A stretch of DNA of 64,000 nucleotides from Escherichia coli (lineage in GTDB: Bacteria; Pseudomonadota; Gammaproteobacteria; Enterobacterales; Enterobacteriaceae). The stretch lies in assembly GCF_048403405.1 (NCBI RefSeq), contig NZ_CP183129.1; one strand, written 5' to 3'. The translations under genes and the position numbers were made by a program. The notes below the pieces were generated by a model that searched no databases, was not told where the DNA came from, and saw only the letters and a program-made list of their open reading frames with translations. Numbering within the stretch: position 1 is the stretch's first letter; each line of letters opens with the position of its first letter. Of this stretch, positions 33,498-49,321 are shown piece after piece.

Positions 33498-34918
33498 TAA
33501 TCACCCCATAGTGAAGAAAAGTTACTGCTGGCTGCTGGCTGTGATACCTGCTCAGATTGCGGCAATGTCTGCGACGAAGAAGACGTTCCTCTGTCAACTG
33601 CTGAAATAACCCGCAAAGCATCATAAGCTCGACCAGAAGCAGCTTTCAGCGAATTGAACTGGTTTTCCATCTTCCGGCGCTTGGTATCAATGGTTTTTGT
33701 GGAGTCGCCAGGCTGAGGGAAATACATTTGATAATATTTTGACATTTCAGCAGGTACGATAGCTGCCCCTGTTTCCTGACGGAGTATTGCCATTATTGCG
33801 TCATTAGCATTAACAACGTATTGCTGCTCTGTTGGGCTGAGCGTTAAGTTAGCCAGCGTCCCATTACCCAAAGCATTATTAATGATCGCCACTCGCTGTG
33901 GGCTAAGCTGGTCTTTCAGTGTATCTATTGAATCAAGAGCATCCCTAACCCTGTATGCAAATCCAGCAGCTTTTTTAGCCCCTTCTGGCGACTTTTCCAT
34001 GATCTTTTGGGCTGTTGGCAAAGCTATTGGACGAAACCCATCTCCAGATATTGGCTGGTTTAGTTTTCCCTGCTCTTCACTTCCGTCTGTGTAGTATTTT
34101 GTGACAGTGCCATCATCGTTTTCTCTAACACTCATTAATTTTTTGGCGTTTGTATTAATTCCAGCCGCTGCCGCAAATGCCGCCGCCCCCTCTGGATCCG
34201 CCTTTAACATTTGAGCGTACTGATTGTAATTCTGCATTGCTGCTGTTGGTGCATATGCTGACGTTAACGCATTTGCTCGGCTAATATCCTGCCCTCTCGC
34301 CTGAAGTGCTTCGCCAGCCTGATTGCTGCGGATTGTCTCTGCCAGCCTGCCTCGCTCAATATCCCGACCTTCCATTTGATCTTTGATATTGAAATACTTC
34401 TCATGACCGAGAGAAAACAGTGCCATACTACCAGCAAGCCGCTGGAATCCCTGTGGATCATTAACATGCATTTCGGCAACAGACTCAGGAGAAATTCCCA
34501 AGCGACGCATTTCATCTTCGTTATCTGCTATGAATTTTCCAAATGCCCCAGTTCCGAGCGAAGATGCGATTTGAGCACTAGTCGCAAGATGACCAATAGA
34601 ATTTCTCTGGTCGTCATCAATAAAGCCCATCCCTTTCTGAACGCTTTCAAATTCTTCTGGATACTCAGAAATAAGACTGCGCATTTTGTTTCTGTCTCCA
34701 GACTCAAAAGCCCCGGCATATGCTTTCTGAAACTCTGATTTACGCTGTTGTTGACGTGCCTGCTGATTAATCTCAGCAACGCCTCTTAGCCCCTGTAGCG
34801 CCATTAAACCTACGTTTGGCTGCTGCTGATACTGCACAGGCTGAGGAACGGAAGAACGAGGAGCATTATCATTTTGCGGTGCCATGCTAGGCAGCCCGCC
34901 AAGTTGCCATGTCGTCAT
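33497..34918 (-). CDS. Cargo operon gene 3: hypothetical 473-aa Gln/Ala-rich protein; candidate ejection-protein (P22 gp20-like) homolog
   Basis: Translationally coupled to flanking genes (shared boundary positions 34918 and 33497); no TM segments or catalytic motifs recognised. Confidence 0.6.
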   Translation of the reverse strand: MTTWQLGGLPSMAPQNDNAPRSSVPQPVQYQQQPNVGLMALQGLRGVAEINQQARQQQRKSEFQKAYAGAFESGDRNKMRSLISEYPEEFESVQKGMGFIDDDQRNSIGHLATSAQIASSLGTGAFGKFIADNEDEMRRLGISPESVAEMHVNDPQGFQRLAGSMALFSLGHEKYFNIKDQMEGRDIERGRLAETIRSNQAGEALQARGQDISRANALTSAYAPTAAMQNYNQYAQMLKADPEGAAAFAAAAGINTNAKKLMSVRENDDGTVTKYYTDGSEEQGKLNQPISGDGFRPIALPTAQKIMEKSPEGAKKAAGFAYRVRDALDSIDTLKDQLSPQRVAIINNALGNGTLANLTLSPTEQQYVVNANDAIMAILRQETGAAIVPAEMSKYYQMYFPQPGDSTKTIDTKRRKMENQFNSLKAASGRAYDALRVISAVDRGTSSSSQTLPQSEQVSQPAASSNFSSLWGD

Positions 34919-35595
34919 TAGAATCCAAGCCCCCCAACAAGACCAATAAGCCCACCACCAATAGCCCCGGCGACATTACCTATACCCGGAACAACGGAAC
35001 CAAGTTGCGCACCCGCTAAAGCGCCTGATGCCGCCCCACCAATACCACGCGCAAGACTGGATGGCTGCTGCGCCTGACCTGCACGAATAGCGCCAAGCCC
35101 CTGCAAGAGTTGTCCGGTATTATTGGCGTAGTTTTGCCCTGCTGTTGCCTGCCCTGATGCCGCATTCATCCCGACATTTAGCAGGTTTCCATAATTTTGC
35201 ATTTGCCCACTAAGCCAATTGTTATAAAGCATGGGCGCAATGGAAGATAACTGGTTACTGGTAGCTGTTGAGCCAAGCCCCCCGGTAGCTTCTGCTGAGA
35301 CAAGGTTCTGATAACGGGCCTGATCTGCCTGTGTTTTATATAAACCAGAACCAAAGAAATCATTCGCGGCTTTATTCTGCCCTTCCAGAGTCATCAGTCC
35401 TTGCAGTTGTTGTAAAGCAGGCAATCCGACTTCTGCATACGGCTTGAGATTATTCATCACCGTATTCCACTGCTCGCGCTGCAAATCAATTGCCTGCTGC
35501 TGGGCCTTCGCCTGGGCTTTAGAGGCACCACCATCACCGCCTTTTTCGTATACGGCACGATTGAGATGTTTATGAGCTATATGGGTAATTAACAT
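34918..35595 (-). CDS. Cargo operon gene 2: hypothetical 225-aa protein with C-terminal glycine-zipper segment; candidate ejection-protein (P22 gp7-like) homolog
   Basis: C-terminus GIGGAASGALAGAQLGSVVPGIGNVAGAIGGGLIGLVGGLGF is a glycine-zipper type membrane-inserting motif; Gln/Asn/Ala-rich body; overlaps upstream gene by 7 nt. Confidence 0.6.
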   Translation of the reverse strand: MLITHIAHKHLNRAVYEKGGDGGASKAQAKAQQQAIDLQREQWNTVMNNLKPYAEVGLPALQQLQGLMTLEGQNKAANDFFGSGLYKTQADQARYQNLVSAEATGGLGSTATSNQLSSIAPMLYNNWLSGQMQNYGNLLNVGMNAASGQATAGQNYANNTGQLLQGLGAIRAGQAQQPSSLARGIGGAASGALAGAQLGSVVPGIGNVAGAIGGGLIGLVGGLGF

Positions 35596-36050
35596 TCGCT
35601 GAGTTCCTTATATTGTTGCCGTGTTAACTGATAAAGCGTTACGCCGACGGGTTTACCACATCTGATATATGCATCGGCCAGGTGACCAACACGGGTAGCG
35701 CCAAGCAAACGGATAATTGCCCGTCCGTATTTCGTGGTGTCAGGAACCATGGTGATGCTGTTAAGGAATGGTGAGTTTTCGAGAAGCCATTTGCAGAACA
35801 ATCGATGCCCTTGCAGTGCATATTCACCACGGAATCCGGGGTCGTACACCGCATGGCATTCAACAATGCTATGCCAGAAGTTACGCACTTCATGAACGCC
35901 TGTCAGCACTAATCCTTCGTAGATGCCGAGATATACCGCATCAGGCTTGATGTAGTACGTGTGCCCCGGCTCAACAATATTTTCGGTATTGCCAGGCTCG
36001 TTAAGAAAGGCCTGTAATCGCACCGGGTTATCAATAAATTTTAGTTCCAT
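35589..36050 (-). CDS. Cargo operon gene 1: hypothetical 153-aa soluble protein
   Basis: First gene of the coupled four-gene operon; several conserved-looking His/Cys (HEVRNFWH, ECHAVYDPGF); no family recognised from memory. Confidence 0.55.
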   Translation of the reverse strand: MELKFIDNPVRLQAFLNEPGNTENIVEPGHTYYIKPDAVYLGIYEGLVLTGVHEVRNFWHSIVECHAVYDPGFRGEYALQGHRLFCKWLLENSPFLNSITMVPDTTKYGRAIIRLLGATRVGHLADAYIRCGKPVGVTLYQLTRQQYKELSEC

Positions 36051-36676
36051 GCGGTGCCATCCGTTTTCACATACAGCCTGCCAGCGCCTTATCTATTAAC
36101 CCTCGTGCAATTTCATGCAGAGTTGGCGCTACTCCAATTCCTGATTTTTTACGCTGCTCTTCCTGAATTTTCTTTATCGCTTCCATTTGCTTCTCACTTA
36201 TCAATACCGGCTTTACTGAAATAGCCATAACGCCCCCTTAGAACTGTATAAAACAACAGTTATTATAGTTTCGCAAATCGCAATATTCATCATCGTAATT
36301 GCAAAATATGAAACAAATAGCACAAAAAAATGCCACCGCTCAGTAGCTGGTGGCATCGTTCTGTGTGTCAGGTTTTGACAGGTTTTTTATGGACTCTAAA
36401 AACTATATTTATGGTGTCGCATTACTCTTTACGGCAGGCGCTTTTCAGTTCTGCCCTTGCTTCTGGCTCCATTGGTAATTTGATTCGCGATCAGCTATGC
36501 GGATGGTTTGCTGAACAGGCATAACAACTTCTCAGAGGCTGTTTTTTGAACTACGAAAATTTCGTAGTGCTCACTTTCAAAAACGTCACGCCCTTGTACA
36601 CAGGATTTTACGAAAGTCTCGTAAAACACTCTCTGATGCCAGCCAGGTGTTGTGCGCATCAATTCAGTCACATTGT

Positions 36677-36787
36677 GTTGGTTCAAAATACCGTGTTGTT
36701 GGTTCAGTGTTGGTTCAATAAAAAGAATAAAATCCTTATAAAACAATACTCTTTACAAATTGAACCAACTGAACCAACTGAACCAAC
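36677..36787. repeat. Iteron array 2 (ori-like), inverse arrangement of array 1, immediately downstream of the primase gene
   Basis: GTTGGTTCA at 36677-36685, 36698-36706, 36709-36717; tandem TGAACCAAC at 36761-36769, 36770-36778, 36779-36787; internal spacer CTCTTTACAAA is the inverse of TTTGTAAAGAG in array 1. Confidence 0.8.
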
Positions 36788-36812
36788 ACCTTTTCTACGC
36801 ACATGAAGAAGC

Positions 36813-39572
36813 TCATTCTTCAGATGAGTTATAATCTCCTGGCTGGTAATTGAGTACATAAACGTTTATTTGTCGTCCCTGAATACGTGGTGATTTTCTT
36901 TGGTATCCACGACCGCTGTTTGGTGGGGTTAGCATCCCGGCTTTTTTCAACACTTCAGCAAACTGTTTTGCGTTGAAACCACATGCGATCTCCTTTTCAA
37001 ATGTGGCCGGGAATGTGTAGAAAATCATTGGGCTTTCGTCATGTTCTCCACGCTGACGGTATCCGGCTAAATCTTTGATGGGCAAATCTGCCGGGCTGTA
37101 TGGAAATGGTGCAAAACGGCTAAGCCCATAGGCATTAAGAAATGCCTCCGTTTGTTCAATAATCTGCTGATGCTCTTTGTTACCTGTGCCGAACTCGCGC
37201 AACCATGCGTTATAGCTGTGCTGTATCGCATCACGGCATGTCTGAGCATCCCAGCCTGTTACAACCTCGCCTAACAACAATGCGGCCTCCAGAATGGCAA
37301 ATCGCGCGGCTACACGGTGAACCTGCTCACCATAATCGGGTGGGATCAGGCTTCTCCATCTGCTTTCGCAATCACGAACAGTTTTAATAGCCTGTTGCTG
37401 GTGGTCTGCCAGCCATTTAATCCACTCACGCCCGGCTGCGCCATGGTGATGCTGGTAAGCGTCTTTCAGTGCGTCTGCGTGCTGTTTTCCGTTCTGGTAA
37501 TCGTGAAAGCGTACTGCTTTACTCAACGGAATATTCAGCAGTCGCACCAGTTGCCCGGCTTTGGTTTTTCGCCCGGAAGTAGCGATAAATGTTTCTAAAT
37601 CCATTTCTCCGGTGCTGATTGCCACTGTACGCCAGCGTTTTAGATCCCGGTTTCCACCATCTTTAGCGCCTTGCAGTTTCCCTACACCGTTAAATAACGC
37701 ATAGGCAGACTGTGAAACGCTGACAGGATCAGCGCCCTGACCAACTTCATCAAGCGGCATTAGTCCGTCATTGTGGGCGGCGGCCTCATTTGCCAGCCCC
37801 AGCGCGGTTCCGTACCTCGTCAGCCGCAGTAAATCAGGGTTGCCGTATAAGCTGCTCGCCACGTTTGCCGTGGTGGTCTTACCTGCGCTCGACTGCTCAT
37901 AGAAATGAATGCCGAACCCGTCAGCGCCCACCAGCCCAATCAATGGTGCTGCCAGTGCTGCGCCGATCCCGGTCATCATTGAATAGTTACCAAAGGCCAG
38001 ACGCGCCACGTTATCACGCCAGCTTTGCGCGCTCCCTGAGACGGTATATCCGGCTGCGGCTGAGCTTCTCCCGCTGAACAGCACAGGATTTTCAGGTGTT
38101 CCGATGATTTCCCCATCAGGCATGATGTACGCTCCGCATTGCCAGCCAGTGGCATGAGCAACACGCCACAATTCACGAGAGCCACTGCGTTGTAGCCAGT
38201 CTGCCAGTATTGCTCTGAGGCTGCTTTTGGTCGTGACATTTACCCCACCAGCTTTAAGTGTGCGCCATCCTTCACGTTCACCAATATCAGCCAGTGGAAT
38301 GGCAGCGGTTGTCGGCGTTTCAGAACCAAACGACAGCCAGCGAAGAATGAGATACTGGTCTTTATCGTCTCTGCCAGTACCGATAACGCTTAACGGAGAA
38401 CATAACCAGCTTTCGTTATTGATGATTTCTCCACTCTGGCTGTCAGCTCTCGGAGATACCCAATAAATACCATCCTCGCGGCTTTCTATTCTTGGTTTCA
38501 GTGGGTCGGTATCCATAACCTTAAAATCGCTTCCCTCAATGGTCTGTGGCTCCTGTTTCACGCCATTACCCTGTGGTTGGTACATTGACTTATTGAACGC
38601 TTCTGTGGCGCATTTAATGCCGTGTTTTTGGTGGTAATCATTCCAGTCTGCTTTGTGACCTGTCGGGGGTAATGCCACCCATCCAGAAACAGATAAAGCT
38701 GCTTTTTCTGCTGCTATTCTCCCCGTGTTTTGTCTTCCTTCGCTGTGGTCGTTATCCGCAGCAATGATGATTTGTGCTGAAGGAAATTTATCCCGCAGTA
38801 CCTGGGCGACATATAACAGGTTCCCGGCATCAATCGCCGCCACTGTCAGCGCCTCTGGACGAATTAAATGGGCAGATAATGCCGTTGCTAGCCCTTCTGC
38901 GATTAAGATGCTCTGTGTTGTTTCTGGTGCGTTTATGGCGTGATATGCCCCCCGCTTTGCTGAACCTGTCAGGAGTCTTTTTTCACCATGTGAGGTAATA
39001 GTCTGTGCTGCTGTGACTGCGCCGGATTTATCCACCAGCGCCAGCAACAGAGATCCATCGGGCAACACGGGGAATGTAAAATCACCTACCCCTTTCGCAA
39101 CCAGATAATCAGATTTGCCGTTTACAGCCTTTCTGCGCATGTCATCAAACTGACGGGAAAACGTATCCCGTCTTTGTTGTTCGTCCTTCTCCGCCCTTTT
39201 CAGGCGCTCCTGTTCGCGTTGCTGGCGCTCGGTTTCCAGTTGTTCCCGTTTCTGGCTGGTGGCTTCTGGTGTTTCCGTTGTCCGGTAATCAATACCCAGA
39301 ACATCAGCGGCAAGCAGCGCCGCCTCTGTTGTGTCGCAGTTATTTACGCGTTTAATTAAATCCAGCCCATCACCAGCGCCGCACTGATTACAGATGAAGC
39401 TACCGCGCCCGTTGTCATCGAACCGGAATCGATCTTTGCCCCCACATGCAGGGCAGGGAGCATGACGGCGCGGAGAGTCAGGGACATTTATGTTCAGGCA
39501 GCCCAGCACATGAGGCCAGTTGTTTTCAGACGCACTGATAACCTGACGGATAAGATCAATGTTTCGCATCAC
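36813..39572 (-). CDS. Replication primase-helicase (zinc-finger + TOPRIM + helicase-like domains; P4 alpha / PICI Pri-Rep type), 919 aa
   Basis: N-terminal Cys4 motif CPACGG...CNQCG; TOPRIM-like acidic motifs (LIAEGLATAL..., IIIAADNDHSEG); P-loop-like SSAGKTT in the C-terminal half; followed directly by iteron array 2. Confidence 0.8.
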   Translation of the reverse strand: MMRNIDLIRQVISASENNWPHVLGCLNINVPDSPRRHAPCPACGGKDRFRFDDNGRGSFICNQCGAGDGLDLIKRVNNCDTTEAALLAADVLGIDYRTTETPEATSQKREQLETERQQREQERLKRAEKDEQQRRDTFSRQFDDMRRKAVNGKSDYLVAKGVGDFTFPVLPDGSLLLALVDKSGAVTAAQTITSHGEKRLLTGSAKRGAYHAINAPETTQSILIAEGLATALSAHLIRPEALTVAAIDAGNLLYVAQVLRDKFPSAQIIIAADNDHSEGRQNTGRIAAEKAALSVSGWVALPPTGHKADWNDYHQKHGIKCATEAFNKSMYQPQGNGVKQEPQTIEGSDFKVMDTDPLKPRIESREDGIYWVSPRADSQSGEIINNESWLCSPLSVIGTGRDDKDQYLILRWLSFGSETPTTAAIPLADIGEREGWRTLKAGGVNVTTKSSLRAILADWLQRSGSRELWRVAHATGWQCGAYIMPDGEIIGTPENPVLFSGRSSAAAGYTVSGSAQSWRDNVARLAFGNYSMMTGIGAALAAPLIGLVGADGFGIHFYEQSSAGKTTTANVASSLYGNPDLLRLTRYGTALGLANEAAAHNDGLMPLDEVGQGADPVSVSQSAYALFNGVGKLQGAKDGGNRDLKRWRTVAISTGEMDLETFIATSGRKTKAGQLVRLLNIPLSKAVRFHDYQNGKQHADALKDAYQHHHGAAGREWIKWLADHQQQAIKTVRDCESRWRSLIPPDYGEQVHRVAARFAILEAALLLGEVVTGWDAQTCRDAIQHSYNAWLREFGTGNKEHQQIIEQTEAFLNAYGLSRFAPFPYSPADLPIKDLAGYRQRGEHDESPMIFYTFPATFEKEIACGFNAKQFAEVLKKAGMLTPPNSGRGYQRKSPRIQGRQINVYVLNYQPGDYNSSEE

Positions 39573-39927
39573 CGTACCCCACGTGGTCTATAGCGTTTGC
39601 GATATGGCTAACCAGCATCTGCCACTTGGTTATTCCGTAATCAGTCAGCATGCCATCATTGTTTAGCCACATATCAAATTCAGCGGTTGTCGCAAGTTTC
39701 CACTTATCGCCGTGGACAGTCCTCATTGCTGGGTACATGAATGCGCAAATCAGATCACAAACATCTGACGGCTTCAGAGATGTAGTAATAGTGCGTCCCT
39801 CTGGCGTCTGAATTGCCATTTTCTCTTCACCAGTAGAATGAAGGTTATGAATCCACACAGCACCAGCAATCTTTGCCACCTGCTCTCCGATTGCGGAGCT
39901 AAGCGCCATTTCTGCATTTTCACGCAT
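39556..39927 (-). CDS. Hypothetical protein, 123 aa (element replication/regulatory operon)
   Basis: Overlaps primase start by 17 nt and the upstream ORF by 8 nt (coupled operon). Confidence 0.5.
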   Translation of the reverse strand: MRENAEMALSSAIGEQVAKIAGAVWIHNLHSTGEEKMAIQTPEGRTITTSLKPSDVCDLICAFMYPAMRTVHGDKWKLATTAEFDMWLNNDGMLTDYGITKWQMLVSHIANAIDHVGYGDAKH

Positions 39928-40261
39928 GAGAACCTCCCGCTACAGTTGCGCCCATGTCATTAACCATGCTTTGCCATATCTCACGCCCGACGTCAGTCAA
40001 TCTGTCCTTAGTGACGCAACGATCAAGAAGCTCGATCCCCACGGTTTCCCACTGCGGGTAGAACACTTTCATGGCTGCCAGTGCGTAACTATCGATCAGG
40101 CTGCGAACGCCTTTTACTCCATTGACGATTTCCACACGTACGGCCTCTCCGTCCGCATCAATCATGAAATAGTCCCCGCCGCTGGTGGAGGTAATGTGGT
40201 TATACAGTGCTGACGCATACTTATTTGCCAGCGCATTCAGTCGGAAATTTTTAGTAATCAT
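39920..40261 (-). CDS. Hypothetical protein, 113 aa
   Basis: Co-directional, translationally coupled ORF in the small-gene operon upstream of primase. Confidence 0.5.
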   Translation of the reverse strand: MITKNFRLNALANKYASALYNHITSTSGGDYFMIDADGEAVRVEIVNGVKGVRSLIDSYALAAMKVFYPQWETVGIELLDRCVTKDRLTDVGREIWQSMVNDMGATVAGGSHA

Positions 40262-40271
40262 GGTTCCATCC

Positions 40272-40874
40272 TCAGTGCGTCACTGGTTCCGATGGCATGC
40301 CGTTTTCATTCAGTTCAGCTATAAAGCTGTTGTGAAGTTCAGCAAGCGTTTCACGACCAAATGGAGTCAGTGCTCCTTGTTCCACATCCATCATGGCTCT
40401 GTAGAAAATGATGGAGCGTTCTGTGCCAGACTCGATGCCAAAACGTTCTATCATCGCGCCCTCAATGTTGTTTGCCATAGCGAGGCGCTCTGCTACTGGA
40501 TACAGCGGCATGGCGACGATGCCGTTGGAATAAACAGCCACTTCGGAAGGATTGCCAGTATCATCAATGATGCTGACAGTGCCGTTTTCCTCTCTCATTT
40601 CCAGCATGAATACTGTTGCGATCAACCATCTCCACATAATGACGTTATGCTGTGATGTGTAATCGAAATATCCCTGGTTGCCGCCATCGGCAATAGCGAG
40701 ATGTATTGACATACCTTCATCTGGTTTATCGTCATAATCCCCGGCATCCAGACGATTTACGGCATCAATATATGAGACGGTCTCAACGCGTTCTGTCATG
40801 CCATCGTTGCTGCGGTGCATGATGTTTACGCCGTCAGGCGTTGCTTCTGCCTGGAAAGTTAAGAAATTATTCAT
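40272..40874 (-). CDS. Hypothetical protein, ~200 aa
   Basis: ORF-track ORF 40272-40979 trimmed to the internal Met (MNNFLTFQ...) because the longer reading overlaps the upstream 73-aa ORF; GAGG-type RBS. Confidence 0.45.
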   Translation of the reverse strand: MNNFLTFQAEATPDGVNIMHRSNDGMTERVETVSYIDAVNRLDAGDYDDKPDEGMSIHLAIADGGNQGYFDYTSQHNVIMWRWLIATVFMLEMREENGTVSIIDDTGNPSEVAVYSNGIVAMPLYPVAERLAMANNIEGAMIERFGIESGTERSIIFYRAMMDVEQGALTPFGRETLAELHNSFIAELNENGMPSEPVTH

Positions 40875-41088
40875 GTTTCGCCTCGCCTGAATGATTCTGT
40901 AACTCATATTTGCCCAACAATTCGTCTGCTTCCTGAATAGCTTCTGGTACGCCATTGAGCAGTGACATAACCGCGCCAATCATTAACTTGTCTCTGTTGC
41001 TGGGGCTGGCCCCTTCAAGCCAGAACCCTAAAACAGTCTGAACCTGTTCGATGCGACATTGCGCTTCAATGAGCTGGATGTTGGTCAT
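40867..41088 (-). CDS. Hypothetical small protein, 73 aa
   Basis: Coupled small ORF (overlap ATGA-type with neighbour at 41085-41088). Confidence 0.4.
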   Translation of the reverse strand: MTNIQLIEAQCRIEQVQTVLGFWLEGASPSNRDKLMIGAVMSLLNGVPEAIQEADELLGKYELQNHSGEAKHE

Positions 41089-41348
41089 TTCGCACTCTCC
41101 GCATCGATTAAACTGATATCTATCAGAGAGGTAACTTTTTGTAGCCAGCTAGTGATTACTGTCGCCTGTTCCCCTCCCACCGATGGAAGAATCTCATTCA
41201 TCACATGAACCAGACCTGTGCGCGCTCTGGTAAGCCGTTCAGTCGTGCGATCTGCAAGAGTGAATGTGTCTGGATATGGTTCTTCACGGCTCAGCAATGA
41301 TTCAATTTCCAGCTCACACGGATGACGATAAATTAAGTTGATATTCAT
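41085..41348 (-). CDS. Hypothetical small protein, 87 aa
   Basis: Coupled small ORF in same operon. Confidence 0.4.
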   Translation of the reverse strand: MNINLIYRHPCELEIESLLSREEPYPDTFTLADRTTERLTRARTGLVHVMNEILPSVGGEQATVITSWLQKVTSLIDISLIDAESAK

Positions 41349-41539
41349 TTTTCACCCCCAAGAATTACCAGCTCTGCACGGGCATCGTTAACCAAAGATG
41401 AGCACGCTTTAATCGCATCCACGACATCAGTAGCGTCCATTTCTTCAGCCGAAAGACTGACAGCAACCAGGACAGCCGCTGCTTGCTCGATTAATTGAAG
41501 TGCGGACGTAAGGCGAGGGGTATTAATTGAGTTATTCAT
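41345..41539 (-). CDS. Hypothetical small protein, 64 aa
   Basis: Coupled small ORF in same operon. Confidence 0.4.
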   Translation of the reverse strand: MNNSINTPRLTSALQLIEQAAAVLVAVSLSAEEMDATDVVDAIKACSSLVNDARAELVILGGEK

Positions 41540-42599
41540 TGGTTGCCCCCGTTTTTACTGGCATTTCGCCACCTTCCAGCAGGAAATGAACGTCACGAAC
41601 GGCGAGATCCAATATCGCGAGTAACGCCTTCAGTCTTTCGTCTCGTGAGGGAGAGTTGCTCACCAGAATGTCGTTAATCACTTCTGTCAGTGTGATGATC
41701 TGGCTTGTGCGTTCGAGGGGATCCATATGCACATCGTAGGTTTTAATCATGTGCCACCTCCATGCGGATACGACCAGCAAAAAAGCAGACGTGATCGCGC
41801 ACCAGAGAACGGCGAGCATCGCGTTCAGACTCGGCAGCAATATGATGAATTCTGGCGGTAATTGTCGGGCAATCGCGGCGAACTGCGGCGATAATCCAGA
41901 TAAATTGCGGTTTTTGGGTAGGGGTAGTAGCCAGCATGTGGCAGCCTCCATTCGATAGCATGTAACGCTACCACCGGAAACGCCAATTTCGCTGGTGGTA
42001 GCCCAGACAGGGTTGGCGTAACCGGCTCGAATGGATACCGGCGCTTCCGAAGAAGCCCCTGCCTGAGCCACCATTGATTGACAAAGGCGCTGGATTATAC
42101 ACCAACGCCCAAAAAATGGGTGAGTCAGACCTACGACATAAAAAAAGACGCTCGGCGCGTCATATGTCGCCATTCGATTTACCAGGACGCCAATCCCGGC
42201 ACCCGTTTTATGAGGTGCCTTATAACCATAAACCGTGTTGCCGCATAACGGCAAGCTCTTTTTTATGGACTCCGAAAACTCGCTATTGGAAGCACCAGAT
42301 GCACAGTACATCGCGCTCATTTCGTTAACGTCACGCGCGCGGATGAAGGTTTTTGTGGAGTCACTACGCGAGCGGAAGACATCATCTACGACCAGAAATT
42401 TTCTGGCGCAGCCGCTGACCTTCTCAATGCTAATATCATCGCCCGAGATTTCTGGTATGGTTAAGGCATCCGTTCCGACCACCAGCAAATGATAAACTTT
42501 GCTTGTATCTGCTGTATTAATGCCTGACTTTGCCGTCATATTGCTGGATTTTGGCGACATACCAGCCAGTGAAAATGTCTTCTTCTGGACGGGTATCAT
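41532..42599 (-). CDS. Hypothetical protein, 355 aa (C-terminal half of reading frame is of doubtful coding quality)
   Basis: Start overlaps the stop of the upstream small gene (42596-42599), supporting a real start; C-terminal half is Trp/Cys-rich and may reflect a frameshift or separate small genes. Confidence 0.4.
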
Positions 42600-42772
42600 T
42601 GGTTAACCTCCGCGAACTCCTTCATGAAACGCGCCAGCGGTTGTACGCATGGCGATTGATACCCGTCGCGATAAAACGTCACTCGGTTGTGAGACACGCT
42701 TTCGACAGTAACGAGTGCTCCGTGGGCATCTTTGTAGCGTTTTTGTGGTTGTGGTGTTCCTGTTGGCTTAGA
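42596..42772 (-). CDS. Hypothetical small protein, ~58 aa
   Basis: ORF-track ORF 42596-42862 trimmed to the internal Met (MSKPTGTPQ...) that overlaps the antirepressor-like gene stop by 4 nt. Confidence 0.4.
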   Translation of the reverse strand, partial: SKPTGTPQPQKRYKDAHGALVTVESVSHNRVTFYRDGYQSPCVQPLARFMKEFAEVNQ

Positions 42773-43601
42773 CATTGAGCGCCTCCAGACGCTTGGCGAG
42801 CCAGCGTTGCGACAGGCGGGTGAGTTCTCCTTTGCGCTGCTCATATTCCATGCCCATATCAATTAACGTGATATTGGTGCTTTCGAGATATGAGAGGTGC
42901 TCAAGCTGTTCTGCGTTCATATGGTCGCGAGGTTCGCCAGAATAGCCATTTATCCGCGCCCACTGCTTAGCAGTTAGCCCACCAAGAACGATACGAGAAA
43001 TCATATTGCTCTCGTTTGTGTAGTGGTGTTGCTGCGTCATTTTCCCCATCTCGGCACGGGCCATATTCAGCGCATCGCACATTGGCTTAAAGTTGTTTGC
43101 GGCACTAATACGGGCTTTTAGCTGGCGACGATAGCGGGCGGCGATTTCAGGCACGGTACGCTGTAATTCTTCCTCGCACTGGATGAAATAACGGCGGATA
43201 GCGCGACCCTGATCATTGCGTTCGATCATTGCCAGTTCTTTCGCCATTCCGACACTTAACAGATAGTCTTTGCCGGGTCTGCCAGAGTGCTTTATCTTGC
43301 TGTAAGCCGCGCCATTCGGGCTTTTCCCCAAATTTGGGGAAATTGTTTTATGGACTGAGTAATCGTGCCCAATGGTGAAGTCATATTCAGAGATGCGATC
43401 AGTGATCCATGTAGAGAAGTCTTTTCCCACGCCCAACGCTTTGTGTAACGCTTTTGCGCTAACAATATTGGTTTCACGCCCACCGATATGACCAGGAATA
43501 ACCGGGACAATTGCGGCAAATTCATTACCGTTAATTGTGCCCAGAGAGGCGTTCAGATGAGGGGCGGCCTCAGAAATTAATCTGCTTTTTTCGATGTTCA
43601 T
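42768..43601 (-). CDS. Phage antirepressor-like protein (AntA/KilA-type N-terminal domain), 277 aa
   Basis: N-terminal region ...IVSAKALHKALGVGKDFSTWITDRI... resembles AntA/KilA-N antirepressor domains; C-terminal coiled-coil; typical of satellite/prophage regulatory modules. Confidence 0.55.
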   Translation of the reverse strand: MNIEKSRLISEAAPHLNASLGTINGNEFAAIVPVIPGHIGGRETNIVSAKALHKALGVGKDFSTWITDRISEYDFTIGHDYSVHKTISPNLGKSPNGAAYSKIKHSGRPGKDYLLSVGMAKELAMIERNDQGRAIRRYFIQCEEELQRTVPEIAARYRRQLKARISAANNFKPMCDALNMARAEMGKMTQQHHYTNESNMISRIVLGGLTAKQWARINGYSGEPRDHMNAEQLEHLSYLESTNITLIDMGMEYEQRKGELTRLSQRWLAKRLEALNV

Positions 43602-43613
43602 TTTCAGTCTCCG

Positions 43614-44045
43614 TTAGGCGGCGTTAAACGCGTTCGGGTAGAGTTTCAGAATGTCGGCAATTTCCTGCTGAGAAAGTCCGTTGTGATCATTTATGTTCGC
43701 AAGATGGTTAACATGAGTGATCACTTTCAGAACATCACCACGGCAGGAGAAACGGTAGCGAAGGTGTGTTCCGATACCATCAGGATTCTTTTCGTCGATA
43801 CGCTCCAGAGTGATTCCAAGCTGGCGTTCTAACTCTGTTGCATAGTTACGACCAGAAGACAGACGGCAGTAGCGAAGAATGTCATTTTCTGTCCATCCCT
43901 CTATACCAGTACGCAGCATATAGACTCTGGCACGATGCTTTTTCGGTGTGCGCTTTGGTGCTTGAAGGGATTTTGTCAGGGGCGTAACATCAGATACGCG
44001 AATATCTGAATTAGCCGCCTGTAATGGGCGGTTTTTCTTTTCCAT
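43614..44045 (-). CDS. Hypothetical basic protein, 143 aa
   Basis: Immediately downstream of alpA, start/stop abut (44045); Lys/Arg-rich N-terminus. Confidence 0.5.
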   Translation of the reverse strand: MEKKNRPLQAANSDIRVSDVTPLTKSLQAPKRTPKKHRARVYMLRTGIEGWTENDILRYCRLSSGRNYATELERQLGITLERIDEKNPDGIGTHLRYRFSCRGDVLKVITHVNHLANINDHNGLSQQEIADILKLYPNAFNAA

Positions 44046-44248
44046 CAGGCCACCTTCCCGCGGCGTTCTGCCAGCCAGTTGTGAATCTCAACCGCATCAA
44101 ACGCAGTTATTTTTTCTCCCAGCTTTACCGGACGTGGTAGTGAACCGTTTCTTACTTTACGGTCGATGGTGGATACACTAACGCCCAGCAATTCAGCCAG
44201 GCGGAAGCGTCTGATATAGCCTTTTGTAGGAATAGTGTCGGTGTTCAT
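44045..44248 (-). CDS. alpA: AlpA-family transcriptional regulator (prophage CP4-57-type excisionase-like HTH)
   Basis: 67 aa; MNTDT..IRRFRLAELLGVSVSTIDRKVRNGSLPRPVKLGEKITAFDAVEIHNWL is the canonical AlpA/MerR-like HTH pattern. Confidence 0.85.
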   Translation of the reverse strand: MNTDTIPTKGYIRRFRLAELLGVSVSTIDRKVRNGSLPRPVKLGEKITAFDAVEIHNWLAERRGKVA

Positions 44249-44311
44249 GCTTCCCGTAACCTCTTAGCGATAGTTGTTGCTTCGTTACGGGAGGAAGTAT
44301 CTGTACATATA

Positions 44312-44346
44312 TGAACAATAAAAAGGCACAGTAATGATACTGTGCC
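44312..44346 (-). terminator. Intrinsic terminator after the 321-aa cargo gene
   Basis: Perfect 8-bp stem GGCACAGT/ACTGTGCC with 6-nt loop, followed on the minus strand by TTTTTATTGTT. Confidence 0.6.
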
Positions 44347-44362
44347 TGAATAGTTAGCTACT

Positions 44363-45328
44363 CTACCCCTTACCGTTGGCGGCAGCACGTAAGTGTCTCA
44401 AAATCACATCTTCATTTGTGATTGCTAACGGTGGAATTTCGTCTTTATGAGCCACTATGCAATCCCGCCACTTCTCAGGGCTTATTTCTTTCTTTTTGCC
44501 ACGGCATTCATCAGGATACTTTGACAAAAGATATATTGCAGATTTGAAAAGTTTTTCCCTGTTTTCAGCATGTCTCTCGGCATTATGGTTGCTATTTTTT
44601 ATTTCAGGTATTAGTTCCTGTTCTACCGCCATTTCGTATCGTTTTTTGCTCTTAGCTGCGTCAAAACTTCCATTAACCTTTGCGTCATGAAGGTATTCTA
44701 AATCAGCCTTTGTTATATAAATGTTTTTATCTGACAGGCTACTCAGGTGAATTTGGGAACTTTGCATTTTGAATTTATATAGATCACAATCAAATGTTGC
44801 TTCAAGTCGCACATATGGTTCTCCACATTCTTGTGAATGATAATGTCGTGTTGTTCTACCGCGTACACGCAACAATCCACATGCAATTGATTTTCTTACA
44901 ATAAAAGAGTTTTTGCCAATTTGTTCAAAAACATTTTTATTGTCGCTGTCTTCAACTGTCAGTGGTTTATGTGCATAAAATAGCTCATAAGCACCGCTTT
45001 CAGATGCTGGGATATAAACTTCGTTGCTTGCGCTGGTAATAAGAAAAGGAAATGTAAACCTTACTTCTTCTGGGTACATAAGTAATAAATCAGTTATAAA
45101 ATTAGCATCTTTTTTGAAGTGGATGGTGGCATCAGATTCAATGAAATCAAGAAAGTCAGCATAGACATAAAAGTCTATATGTAGTCTATCTTTCCAATGC
45201 CATATATCATCAATTTCACAATTTAATAATTTTGATGCTCGCTCTATCGTGCAGTAGTCCAAAGGTGGAATACCTGATTCCTGCCATAAATTTCTATGCA
45301 CCACTGTTGTTTCATGAGAGTCGTTCAT
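44363..45328 (-). CDS. Hypothetical AT-rich cargo protein, 321 aa, between integrase and alpA
   Basis: Markedly AT-rich codon usage compared with flanking int and alpA; own terminator; no motif recognised. Confidence 0.6.
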   Translation of the reverse strand: MNDSHETTVVHRNLWQESGIPPLDYCTIERASKLLNCEIDDIWHWKDRLHIDFYVYADFLDFIESDATIHFKKDANFITDLLLMYPEEVRFTFPFLITSASNEVYIPASESGAYELFYAHKPLTVEDSDNKNVFEQIGKNSFIVRKSIACGLLRVRGRTTRHYHSQECGEPYVRLEATFDCDLYKFKMQSSQIHLSSLSDKNIYITKADLEYLHDAKVNGSFDAAKSKKRYEMAVEQELIPEIKNSNHNAERHAENREKLFKSAIYLLSKYPDECRGKKKEISPEKWRDCIVAHKDEIPPLAITNEDVILRHLRAAANGKG

Positions 45329-45423
45329 TGCGTCACCTTTTACGCTGCGCCTTATTTTGTGATTGAGCCAGGCGGTAAGGCTTCCCGCTTTTCGCCCCGT
45401 CGAGCTAGGCTCAATCTATTCAG

Positions 45424-46683
45424 TTAGTTCGCCCTTCTGAGAGGCGTTACGTTGTAGTCTTTTCCGCTTTCCAGTGCCACCAGCAGATCAGCCCACTGTG
45501 CCAGTGCTGCTTTACGCTCATCAAAATACTGATGGCGGTTATAAATCCCCTCTACGCCCTTAATGCGATGATTGAGGCATCGTTCCGCCACGACAGGATC
45601 AACACCCAACGCTGCTAAATGAGTACGTGCGGTGCGTCGGAAGTCGTGAATCGTGAAATTAGGCACATCCGGCATTTCGGCGCGAACCTTAGCCAGTGCT
45701 ACGGGCAAAGTGCTTTCCTGAATATGTGGGATCATTCTGTTTTGCATCTTCCTGGCTGGAAGCACCCATGCGCTATTACATGAAAAGGTGTGTAGCTCTC
45801 TCAACCATTCAACGGCTGGGGAAGGTAGAGGTATATCAATAGGGTCTCCGTTTTTGCTGCGTTCTTCCGGCAAATGCCATACCGCACCATCTAAATCAAA
45901 CTCTTCCCATCGTGCGGCGCATAACTCCATCTTACGAACGCATAGTGCCAGCAATAGCTTAAATGTCAGTTCGTTCTGGCGGCTGAATCCTTTTGCGGTG
46001 CGCATAGCCTCGAATAGCCTGATAAGCTCATCGCGAGTTAGCCAACGGTCGCGGGAAACCTCTTTACCACCAGCATCAGATACTTCAAACGCTGAACAAG
46101 GGTTTATCTCCAGAGCGTGGCGTTTTATCCCGTAGTCAAAGATACGGCGTGTCCAGCGTAATACATCTGTTGCTATCGTTGGTGCTCCTCGGTCAACGAT
46201 ACCTTTCAACATGTCGTCAATGTGGCGTGGCTTAACGTCCTCTACCTTCATATGCCCAATGCAGGGGTTAATATCCTTATCAATTCTCCGGCGAAGGATA
46301 TCGGGATGTTTCCATCTCGGAAGTATCTGGCGCTCGAAGTATTCGGAGGCCAGATCTGAAACACGCATGGCGTTTTTCTCAGCCTCCATTTTTGCCAGTG
46401 CTTCAGCTTTTCGTTCCTGTTTCTCTGCTGCTACGTCATAGCCAAGAGCAACTCTGGCTGACAGCTCTTTTGCTGTTTCTCTGGCTTTTGATAGTGACAG
46501 TTCGGAGTAAGAGCCTATAACCATAGCCCGCTGCTTTCCTGCGAGCTTATAGCGGAATCGCCAGAACGGGGCTGTGTAGTTTTTGGGGTAGCAAATATAA
46601 AGGCCGTTGCCGTCTGCCTTGCCATCAAATCTGTCTCCCGCCTTTATCCATGCGCGGATCTGCATATCTGTGAGTTTTGGCAT
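45424..46683 (-). CDS. Tyrosine recombinase, P4-type integrase, 419 aa
   Basis: From MPKLTDMQIRAWIKAG...GNGLYI (P4-integrase N-terminal arm-binding pattern) to C-terminal catalytic region with ...HDFRRT...LNH..., ending ...GIYNRHQY (tyrosine nucleophile context); adjacent to right-end repeat. Confidence 0.9.
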   Translation of the reverse strand: MPKLTDMQIRAWIKAGDRFDGKADGNGLYICYPKNYTAPFWRFRYKLAGKQRAMVIGSYSELSLSKARETAKELSARVALGYDVAAEKQERKAEALAKMEAEKNAMRVSDLASEYFERQILPRWKHPDILRRRIDKDINPCIGHMKVEDVKPRHIDDMLKGIVDRGAPTIATDVLRWTRRIFDYGIKRHALEINPCSAFEVSDAGGKEVSRDRWLTRDELIRLFEAMRTAKGFSRQNELTFKLLLALCVRKMELCAARWEEFDLDGAVWHLPEERSKNGDPIDIPLPSPAVEWLRELHTFSCNSAWVLPARKMQNRMIPHIQESTLPVALAKVRAEMPDVPNFTIHDFRRTARTHLAALGVDPVVAERCLNHRIKGVEGIYNRHQYFDERKAALAQWADLLVALESGKDYNVTPLRRAN

Positions 46684-46740
46684 TGCGAATACCTGAATAT
46701 CGAATATGGGTGTGTACATAAAGCAATGTACATGAAAGTC

Positions 46741-46764
46741 ATTATGTACACCTCTATGTACACG
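46741..46764. repeat. Right-end direct repeat (putative attR core / integrase-binding repeats)
   Basis: ATTATGTACACCTCTATGTACACG; 22/24 identical to 28810-28833; additional TGTACA motifs at 46711-46740. Confidence 0.55.
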
Positions 46765-46808
46765 CATATTGTGCGCTTTATTGCGTCGTTATGATAGCTC
46801 ATGATAAC

Positions 46809-46846
46809 AAAAAAGCCCGACATTTCGCGGGCTTTGTGGTTTTTTG
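46809..46846 (-). terminator. Intrinsic terminator downstream of yicC
   Basis: GC hairpin AGCCCG...CGGGCT flanked by A-run and T-run on opposite sides (bidirectional-looking). Confidence 0.55.
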
Positions 46847-46871
46847 CTGCTTGGTGATTTTTACTGATAGC

Positions 46872-49285: not shown

Positions 49286-49292
49286 AGAAACT

Positions 49293-49316
49293 CGCCGGAT
49301 GAAAAGTCATCCGGCG
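49293..49316. terminator. Bidirectional terminator between pyrE and slmA
   Basis: 10-bp stem CGCCGGATGA/TCATCCGGCG with 4-nt loop between convergent genes. Confidence 0.6.
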
Positions 49317-49321
49317 TCATA

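Follow-up and report, generated by a model that had tools for sequence, protein, structure and literature searches.

Within a 64,000-nt stretch of Escherichia coli DNA (contig NZ_CP183129.1; the whole stretch is hereafter called the window), an 18.1-kb satellite island inserted at yicC carries an open reading frame (ORF) for a 321-residue protein, placed between the gene for a P4-type tyrosine integrase (int) and that for a 67-residue helix-turn-helix (HTH) regulator of the AlpA type (alpA). We refer to this ORF as gene X (Table 1) and conclude with high confidence that it is one allele of a large, undescribed family that is confined to satellites and typically fills a cassette slot between int and alpA in Gram-negative phage-inducible chromosomal islands (PICIs) and P4-like satellites. 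The proteins of this family have no recognisable enzymatic domain and consist of an acidic MerR/Xis-like N-terminal domain, a hypervariable beta-rich centre and a conserved basic C-terminal domain. As to function, we propose, at a probability of roughly one in three, that X is a non-enzymatic, allele-specific sensor of helper phages, or an anti-activator, that is wired to the int/alpA switch of the island. An initial annotation of this DNA had described gene X as an AT-rich orphan without a recognisable motif but with its own terminator, acquired separately from its flanks at a variable position beside the integrase, and had put it forward as a candidate for single-gene defence or abortive infection (Abi). 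The product of gene X is identical to RefSeq WP_001000004.1 ('hypothetical protein') and is also annotated as hypothetical in E. coli M160133.

Gene X is not an orphan. Among 5426 complete E. coli genomes the exact window allele occurs in 76, and integrases of this type are found in 319 genomes; all 191 E. coli matches to the allele are chromosomal. A word-indexed search recovered 48 X clusters at 90% identity from Salmonella, Enterobacter, Cedecea, Pectobacterium, Serratia, Pantoea and other genera, and a profile search of 1.84 billion representatives returned 594 clusters at 50% identity with E ≤ 1e-3, 164 of them with E ≤ 1e-10. Foldseek searches with X against AFDB50 gave 144 matches at E ≤ 1e-3, with Aeromonas and Vibrio among those listed; the matches listed (50 of the 144) are all uncharacterised except for one 'DNA-binding protein', and every named family member is annotated as hypothetical. 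Sequence searches of Pfam, NCBIfam and PDB with X as the query found nothing, and none of 144 diverse family members matches any Pfam domain at E ≤ 1e-3. Some members fall in phrog_7144 of PHROGs, a group of unknown function. In PADLOC-DB 2.0 the only match of X is to PDC-S31 (E = 0.002, residues 183-266), which we take to be a chance match as it is weak and was not reproduced when 10 other family members were searched, none of which had a match. A full-text literature search for WP_001000004 found nothing, and neither the family nor its strict int-X-alpA synteny nor the cassette-like exchange of its alleles is described in the literature and libraries that we searched. Variable accessory loci beside satellite integrases are already known, and the island around X is an ordinary representative of a PICI type that has been described before.

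The context of X-family genes was read at 19 loci (designated by L numbers), comprising yicC sites of E. coli, Salmonella, Pantoea, Intestinirhabdus and Tatumella, other sites in Xenorhabdus, Brenneria and Salmonella diarizonae, three metagenome contigs, one metagenome-assembled genome and one 'Klebsiella phage' record. (A peptide-pattern scan of genome contigs gave only three loci because the peptide patterns were narrow.) At all 19 loci the X-family gene is co-oriented with a P4-type integrase gene and comes directly after it; 7-305 nt separate the two (7-115 nt in eleven loci that were measured, 7-28 nt in several). The small gene that comes after it encodes an AlpA or HTH_17 protein in 16 of the 19 and has no assignment in L012, L014 and L017, and a primase gene is found further on wherever the contig is long enough. 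This synteny spans integrases of at least five lineages, which share a mutual identity of only 20-39%; integrases of the homologous loci carry the Pfam domains Arm-DNA-bind_3, Phage_int_M and Phage_integrase. The satellites that bear X differ as well, one having P22-like late genes, one a capsid gene and one P4 epsilon together with a P2-type capsid domain. Among the 19 loci read, no family member lay outside the int-alpA slot, whether in defence islands, on plasmids or in phages, which would be unusual for free-moving defence cargo. Similarly, a tblastn search with two family members against 50,697 phage records yielded a single match, with the same int-X layout, in Klebsiella phage P12620-1 (L028; PQ569648.1, 106 kb); since an integrase gene, an X-family gene and an AlpA homologue lie together there (93181-95441), this record may include satellite or host DNA. 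By this tblastn search, X is not a phage gene.

The slot beside the integrase is indeed variable, as the initial annotation had supposed. In E. coli yicC islands with integrases 82-99% identical to that of the window, it holds six classes of gene. Four are clear family members (E = 1e-48 to 1e-110 versus family profiles), namely the window allele with 321 residues and alleles of 316 (L002/L023), 281 (L020/L026) and 307 residues (L021); a fifth class (L024/L027, 293 residues) has only a non-significant N-terminal resemblance to the X family, and the sixth (L019/L025, 216 residues) is unrelated to it. The L019- and L024-type genes matched nothing in Pfam or PADLOC and have no informative PHROG annotation. 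Islands with integrases 98-99% identical and with identical AlpA proteins (WP_001090781.1 is annotated in both L001 and L020) hold alleles that are about 30% identical or unrelated. In the comparison with L020, whose flanks are 99% identical to those of the window, homology ends at 44291 and restarts at 45324, and the breakpoints recur with L021, L026 and L027 (44288-44291 and 45324-45325). On the basis of these recurrent breakpoints, the exchanged unit is the X ORF with 71 nt downstream that carry the terminator. The cassette is bordered on the int side by the int-alpA RNA motif (see below) and the ribosome-binding site of X, and on the alpA side by a conserved inverted repeat, CCCGTAAC-N23-GTTACGGG, that overlaps the Shine-Dalgarno sequence of alpA. 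With alleles swapped between conserved flanks at recurrent breakpoints, the locus behaves as a variable hotspot or cassette locus.

The PICI backbone can also occur with another integration zone. A near-identical backbone (98.5% identity over 79% of the island) is found at tRNA-Thr with another integrase, another alpA allele and no X, which indicates that X is part of the integration-zone module and that the backbone can do without it; in this copy an 'Abi family protein' is encoded at the other end of the island, near PerC. No remnant of X was detected in the int-alpA gaps of islands that are without it.

The guanine-plus-cytosine (GC) content of gene X is 0.369 versus 0.490 for int and 0.505 for alpA, so that the AT-richness first noted is real, and the dip (0.35-0.39) is restricted to the X ORF. 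In 10 of 11 loci compared, from several genera, the GC content of X lies 9-25 points under that of int and alpA, and low-GC X genes are seen among these loci in hosts of 38% as well as 57% GC. Low GC is therefore a family trait, and we rejected AT-richness as a sign of recent arrival of the window copy. Of the separate acquisition that had been deduced from composition, what survives is a history distinct from that of the flanks, to which the cassette breakpoints testify.

The assignment of a terminator to gene X also stands. A hairpin with a perfect 10-bp stem and a 4-nt loop (44347-44324) begins 16 nt past the stop codon and is followed by a U-run (UUUUUAUUGUU; whole pattern, 44347-44313). 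By itself such a pattern is no rarer than expected by chance (2 found versus 2.1 expected in a 1.8-kb stretch), and what makes the terminator credible is where it lies, the perfect pairing of its stem and the fact that it is conserved in relatives from Salmonella and Pantoea (L005, L007). The changes on the sense strand in these relatives are G-U compatible, which fits an RNA hairpin, and the folding of the intergenic RNA is well beyond that of shuffled sequences (z = -4.96). The palindrome was also considered as a repeated operator; this was rejected, since it occurs as a single copy in 64 kb and its changes are G-U compatible, as for an RNA hairpin or terminator.

Homology in the X family extends over the full length of the protein, but conservation is very uneven along it: four blocks are conserved and the centre is hypervariable (alignments A1 and A2). 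At the N-terminus a conserved motif, [LI]P.[LF]E[YF]C.[IL].RAA.LL.C...D[LI][LI]HW....G.I.L, is found in 205 of 224 proteins examined and defines the family, which overturns the initial impression that no motif is recognisable. The domain containing it has a MerR-type winged-helix fold that matches the excisionases Xis, TorI and AlpA; at the level of sequence profiles it does not belong to HTH_17, which matches only 1 of 144 members in Pfam (E = 0.015). Winged-helix proteins of the MerR superfamily include MerR, TipA, GlnR/TnrA, RacA, Xis, TorI and AlpA, and one member, CbpM, does not bind DNA. Unlike in that superfamily, the DNA-contact positions are Asp, Glu, His and Trp in X. The N-terminal domain has a net charge of -5 in X (family median, -2), and D41 is 98% conserved in the 'recognition helix', where MerR/Xis proteins contact DNA. 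With an acidic domain and a conserved Asp in this helix, DNA binding by X is doubtful and should not be assumed. Two candidate relatives were rejected. The adjacent AlpA as a paralogue of X shows the expected register, but hhalign of X against the AlpA alignment gave E = 0.046 and a probability of 1%; YfjH (318 residues), which occupies the int-alpA slot of CP4-57 in E. coli K-12, lies on the opposite strand and gave a BLASTP E of 0.44 and an hhalign probability of 0.2%.

The hypervariable centre comprises about 140 residues, and only five homologues match X over its full length at ≥57% identity. Between alleles whose centres are unrelated, the C-terminal domain is 74-86% identical; it carries the motif ER.A..RE..L..AI......P..C...W....PPL and was found in 75 of 224 proteins checked. 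Across the C-terminal 74 codons, the nonsynonymous rate (dN) between alleles of the window's subfamily is 0.10-0.25 and the synonymous rate (dS) is saturated. The X protein itself is therefore under purifying selection, and the ORF between int and alpA is a real gene.

Helper phages turn on alpA transcription in Gram-negative PICIs by a route that is not known, and no repressor or sensor is known for these islands (PMC6092414; see also PMC11773190). We hypothesize that, while the island is quiescent, X would be transcribed together with int, lying either immediately after int or after the int-alpA RNA motif; its position 7-28 nt behind int in several loci suggests co-transcription. The terminator of X would stop this transcription from reaching alpA. 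That the centre diversifies suggests a partner that itself evolves rapidly, most plausibly a phage protein, which the centre would bind, and the conserved ends of X would link that binding to the int/alpA switch, with an effect on alpA or int. The sensor logic would be Stl-like, the ancestry not. Since the cassette brings along about 70 nt just upstream of the alpA leader, an X allele and the DNA upstream of alpA are inherited together, much as in lambdoid immunity regions. We lean slightly towards such a sensor because the synteny holds without exception among unrelated integrases and different kinds of satellite, X has winged-helix ends and no effector was detected.

Several points weigh against this proposal, whose functional part is deduced from sequence and context. 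X is co-directional with alpA, unlike the divergent Stl/Rpr repressors, and its capacity to bind DNA is in doubt. PICIs without X, such as EcCIMP1, are inducible and transferable (PMC11773190), a near-identical backbone exists with another integration zone and no X, and two of the six E. coli slot classes hold genes that are not detectably in the X family. Furthermore, the element already has P4-type RNA immunity (C4 and isrK), and the palindrome after X is a single-copy, RNA-hairpin-like element instead of a repeated operator. In its most far-reaching form, the proposal would make the X family the missing sensor by which many Gram-negative PICIs and P4-like satellites perceive helper phages, a helper protein bound by the centre releasing a block on alpA (or int) through the winged-helix ends; we consider this generalisation rather unlikely. 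If it were true, each swappable cassette would define which phages induce the island. A widespread, hypervariable family of 594 clusters that is seen only in satellites and keeps its place between int and alpA is an obvious candidate for helper sensing, and one that is easy to test. Whether X senses or excludes phages, the precise cassette boundaries offer a natural allele-swap design for specificity.

The same cassette could instead encode a non-enzymatic protein for anti-phage exclusion or interference. Such a protein would be made while the island is quiescent, be swapped between islands as defence cargo, and through its variable centre bind and block a protein of a superinfecting or helper phage. 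We regard this as a tentative alternative that is nearly as likely as the sensor, and it stays alive because a non-enzymatic exclusion protein would look like X. It is consistent with a slot that varies between near-identical flanks and sometimes holds unrelated genes, and with an AT-rich gene that ends in a terminator of its own and that the PICI backbone does not need. The defence hotspots known beside int in P4-like satellites and PICIs (PMC9122126; bioRxiv 10.64898/2026.02.27.708500) resemble the X slot in being variable and integrase-adjacent, with AT-rich, moron-like cargo exchanged by recombination in conserved flanks. However, these hotspots hold a mixture of many unrelated, mostly enzymatic systems that are found elsewhere too, whereas a single homologous, non-enzymatic family dominates the X slot across at least five integrase lineages, and the 19 contexts read are int-alpA without exception, with none in defence islands, plasmids or phages. 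No P4-hotspot system newly named in the 2026 preprint (bioRxiv 10.64898/2026.02.27.708500) shares the architecture of X. A PICI of the EcCIMP1 type confers superinfection immunity through a gene that has not been identified, no known system having been detected in it (PMC11773190), but EcCIMP1 is itself without X: its gene 002, the small ORF between int and alpA, was rejected as an X counterpart on size, being about one tenth of UvrB. Nor is there a consistent PADLOC match (E = 0.002 for X, 0 of 10 other members) or an effector domain in 144 members. A role of X inside the element is at least as likely as one in defence. Were X an exclusion protein after all, it would represent a new family of defence proteins that escapes the defence-finding tools now in use.

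The defence hypothesis in its original form, a classical Abi toxin or an enzymatic single-gene system, we consider very improbable. Only position and composition speak for it, together with the weak PDC-S31 match, but that match was not reproduced in relatives, 0 of 144 members match Pfam, all 19 contexts are int-alpA, and no nuclease, kinase, nucleoside triphosphatase (NTPase), TIR or HEPN feature is recognisable in X. The protein has no hydrophobic or transmembrane segment (maximum hydropathy, 0.84), and family alignments show no invariant polar residues in the centre. The defence or Abi reading of the initial annotation has no positive evidence behind it. An accessory factor of the integrase, by which X would modulate recombination directionality, Int activity or target choice through its Xis-like N-terminal domain, is distinctly improbable, if less so than a toxin. 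The tight coupling to int (gaps of 7-28 nt in several loci), the match of the N-terminal fold to the Xis, TorI and AlpA excisionases, and the movement of X with the integration zone instead of the backbone would all suit such a factor. It is weakened because near-identical integrases (98-99%) work with unrelated X alleles, or with no family member at all; hypervariability is unexpected for a partner of a conserved Int and att (attachment) site, AlpA already has a directionality role (PMC10111431), and the N-terminal domain is acidic. If X is neither a sensor nor an exclusion protein, it would simply add to the satellite genes whose function is not known.

Among the known systems closest to X are the Stl/Rpr master repressors of Gram-positive PICIs (SaPIs). 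Like X, these adjoin int, are specific to satellites, combine an N-terminal HTH-type domain with a highly variable remainder and differ in allele between otherwise similar islands; by analogy, X may share their logic of a phage-protein sensor (PMC6092414), and the allelic variability seen in X is what such a sensor would be expected to show. Unlike them, X has no sequence or profile similarity to Stl/Rpr, and its HTH-like domain is acidic and of the MerR/Xis type. Stl/Rpr genes are divergently transcribed, whereas X is co-directional with alpA and set apart from it by a terminator, with int, X, alpA and the downstream genes all on the minus strand; moreover, many Gram-negative PICIs are without X. 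Lambdoid immunity regions likewise swap a regulator-type gene and its adjacent regulatory DNA between conserved flanks and hold many specificities within one protein family, a likeness to the X cassette that we use as an analogy only.

Table 1. Coordinates in the window of gene X, its parts and neighbouring features of the yicC island.
Feature	Position	Strand	Details
int, P4-type tyrosine integrase specific for yicC	45424..46683	-	RefSeq start; longest ORF to 46767
int-alpA RNA motif, Rfam RF02996	45349..45415	-	60.6 bits versus gathering score of 35.8
Gene X	44363..45328	-	321-residue ORF from ORF list, ATG to stop; stop codon within coordinates
N-terminal MerR/Xis-type winged-helix domain, acidic, family-defining	45158..45271	-	residues 20-57
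Central domain, beta-rich, hypervariable between alleles, no known fold match	44729..45157	-	residues 58-200
Conserved 'D[LI]xIT' strand, then linker helices	44594..44728	-	residues 201-245; family consensus, model secondary structure
C-terminal domain, basic, helical, isoelectric point 9.0	44366..44593	-	residues 246-321; model pLDDT 95-98
Swappable cassette: X ORF after its first codons and 71 nt downstream with terminator	44292..45323	-	breakpoints versus L020, L021, L026 and L027
Intrinsic-terminator-like hairpin AGGCACAGUA-UCAU-UACUGUGCCU and U-run	44313..44347	-	16 nt past X stop
Conserved inverted repeat CCCGUAAC-N23-GUUACGGG, alpA leader	44253..44291	-	marks right-hand cassette edge
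alpA, 67-residue AlpA/excisionase-type HTH regulator	44045..44248	-	phrog_66, 9.5e-8; Pfam Phage_AlpA on homologues
143-residue 'PM1773 family protein' (NCBI name in some genomes)	43614..44045	-	after alpA
AntA/AntB antirepressor	42768..43601	-	
355-residue 'ash family' ORF	41532..42599	-	
C4 antisense RNA	41991..42078	-	Rfam, 79.5 bits; inside ash ORF
isrK RNA	42141..42218	-	Rfam, 67.1 bits; inside ash ORF
P22-like virion-protein homologues, intact	31392..36050	-	

The int-alpA RNA motif lies in the gap between the int stop codon and the start of X and ends about 20 nt ahead of the X ATG. It recurs at the equivalent position in L005, L020, L021, L024 and L027 (49-70 bits), ahead of four different slot genes, and is missing where the slot gene abuts or overlaps int. 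It could serve as a terminator, a small RNA or a leader for the slot gene. At the alpA edge of the cassette, the inverted repeat of the alpA leader stands immediately upstream of the alpA ATG, with a predicted 9-bp stem and with its 3' arm overlapping the Shine-Dalgarno sequence; where AlpA is of another type, the inverted repeat at the equivalent place differs. This repeat could be a hairpin for translational control or an AlpA operator.

The island that carries X spans 28743-46871 and, compared with island-free E. coli, is inserted exactly at the stop codon of yicC beside dinD, its boundaries having been set by comparison with an empty site (L032). The junction shows a 2-nt overlap only and no long direct repeat, and a search of the island for att direct repeats found no clean core. 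The last codons of yicC are slightly changed and are supplied by the island, in keeping with the 'attB drift' that has been reported for PICIs at yicC. Read from int along the minus strand, the gene order is int, X, alpA, the 143-residue protein, the AntA/AntB antirepressor, a DUF4222 protein and the ash ORF, followed by several small ORFs, a 919-residue primase and P22-like DUF2824 and DNA-transfer (ejection) proteins; at the far end come a short accessory stretch and then a PerC-family regulator. With unidirectional int, alpA and primase genes, a length within about 10-20 kb, a specific att site and no full set of virion or lysis genes, the element is a Gram-negative PICI, and its organisation is that described for such islands (PMC10111431). 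More specifically, it matches the type of EcCIMP1, a PICI mobilised by the P22-like phage Kapi1 (PMC11773190). The two share PerC, P22-like DUF2824 and DNA-transfer proteins, primase, AntA/B antirepressor and alpA, whereas EcCIMP1 differs in its integration at tRNA-Thr and in its integrase (PMC11773190).

Among the neighbours of X, the gene for the 143-residue PM1773-family protein overlaps alpA by one base (an ATGA junction at 44045). The protein is conserved in all yicC islands and has no matches in Pfam-type libraries, which makes its gene another uncharacterised core gene near the integration end. The C-terminal part of the AntA/AntB antirepressor (residues 165-266) matches the PADLOC candidate family PDC-S22 (E = 7.6e-11), which reflects a domain held in common and is no sign of a function in defence. 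The C4 and isrK RNAs are P4-type RNA immunity elements; the pair also occurs in L002, L007 and L021, and L013 has C4 alone. Because both lie inside it, the ash ORF may partly or wholly be an RNA locus.

The virion-protein set of the island consists of a DUF2824 protein (phrog_651, 'head morphogenesis'), two ejection proteins and a 701-residue DNA-transfer protein with a transglycosylase. The same set is present in EcCIMP1, and it suggests that the satellite supplies its own ejection proteins when it is packaged by a P22-like helper. In strain M160133 the gene for the 701-residue protein is interrupted by an IS66 element. A second variable region is located at the PerC-proximal end (window, 28770-31373; L022, 6252-7229; L009, 27953-28816), where the window has small unannotated ORFs, strain 99_0849 an 'Abi family protein' and M160133 an ImmA/IrrE peptidase pair; as an accessory or defence slot, this region is more conventional than the place between int and alpA. 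Outside the island, M160133 carries a gene for a 'reverse transcriptase family protein' between pyrE and slmA (L001, 21334-22293). The window lacks this gene, the alignment skipping there from 49286 to 49321; the gene may be a retron-type insertion.

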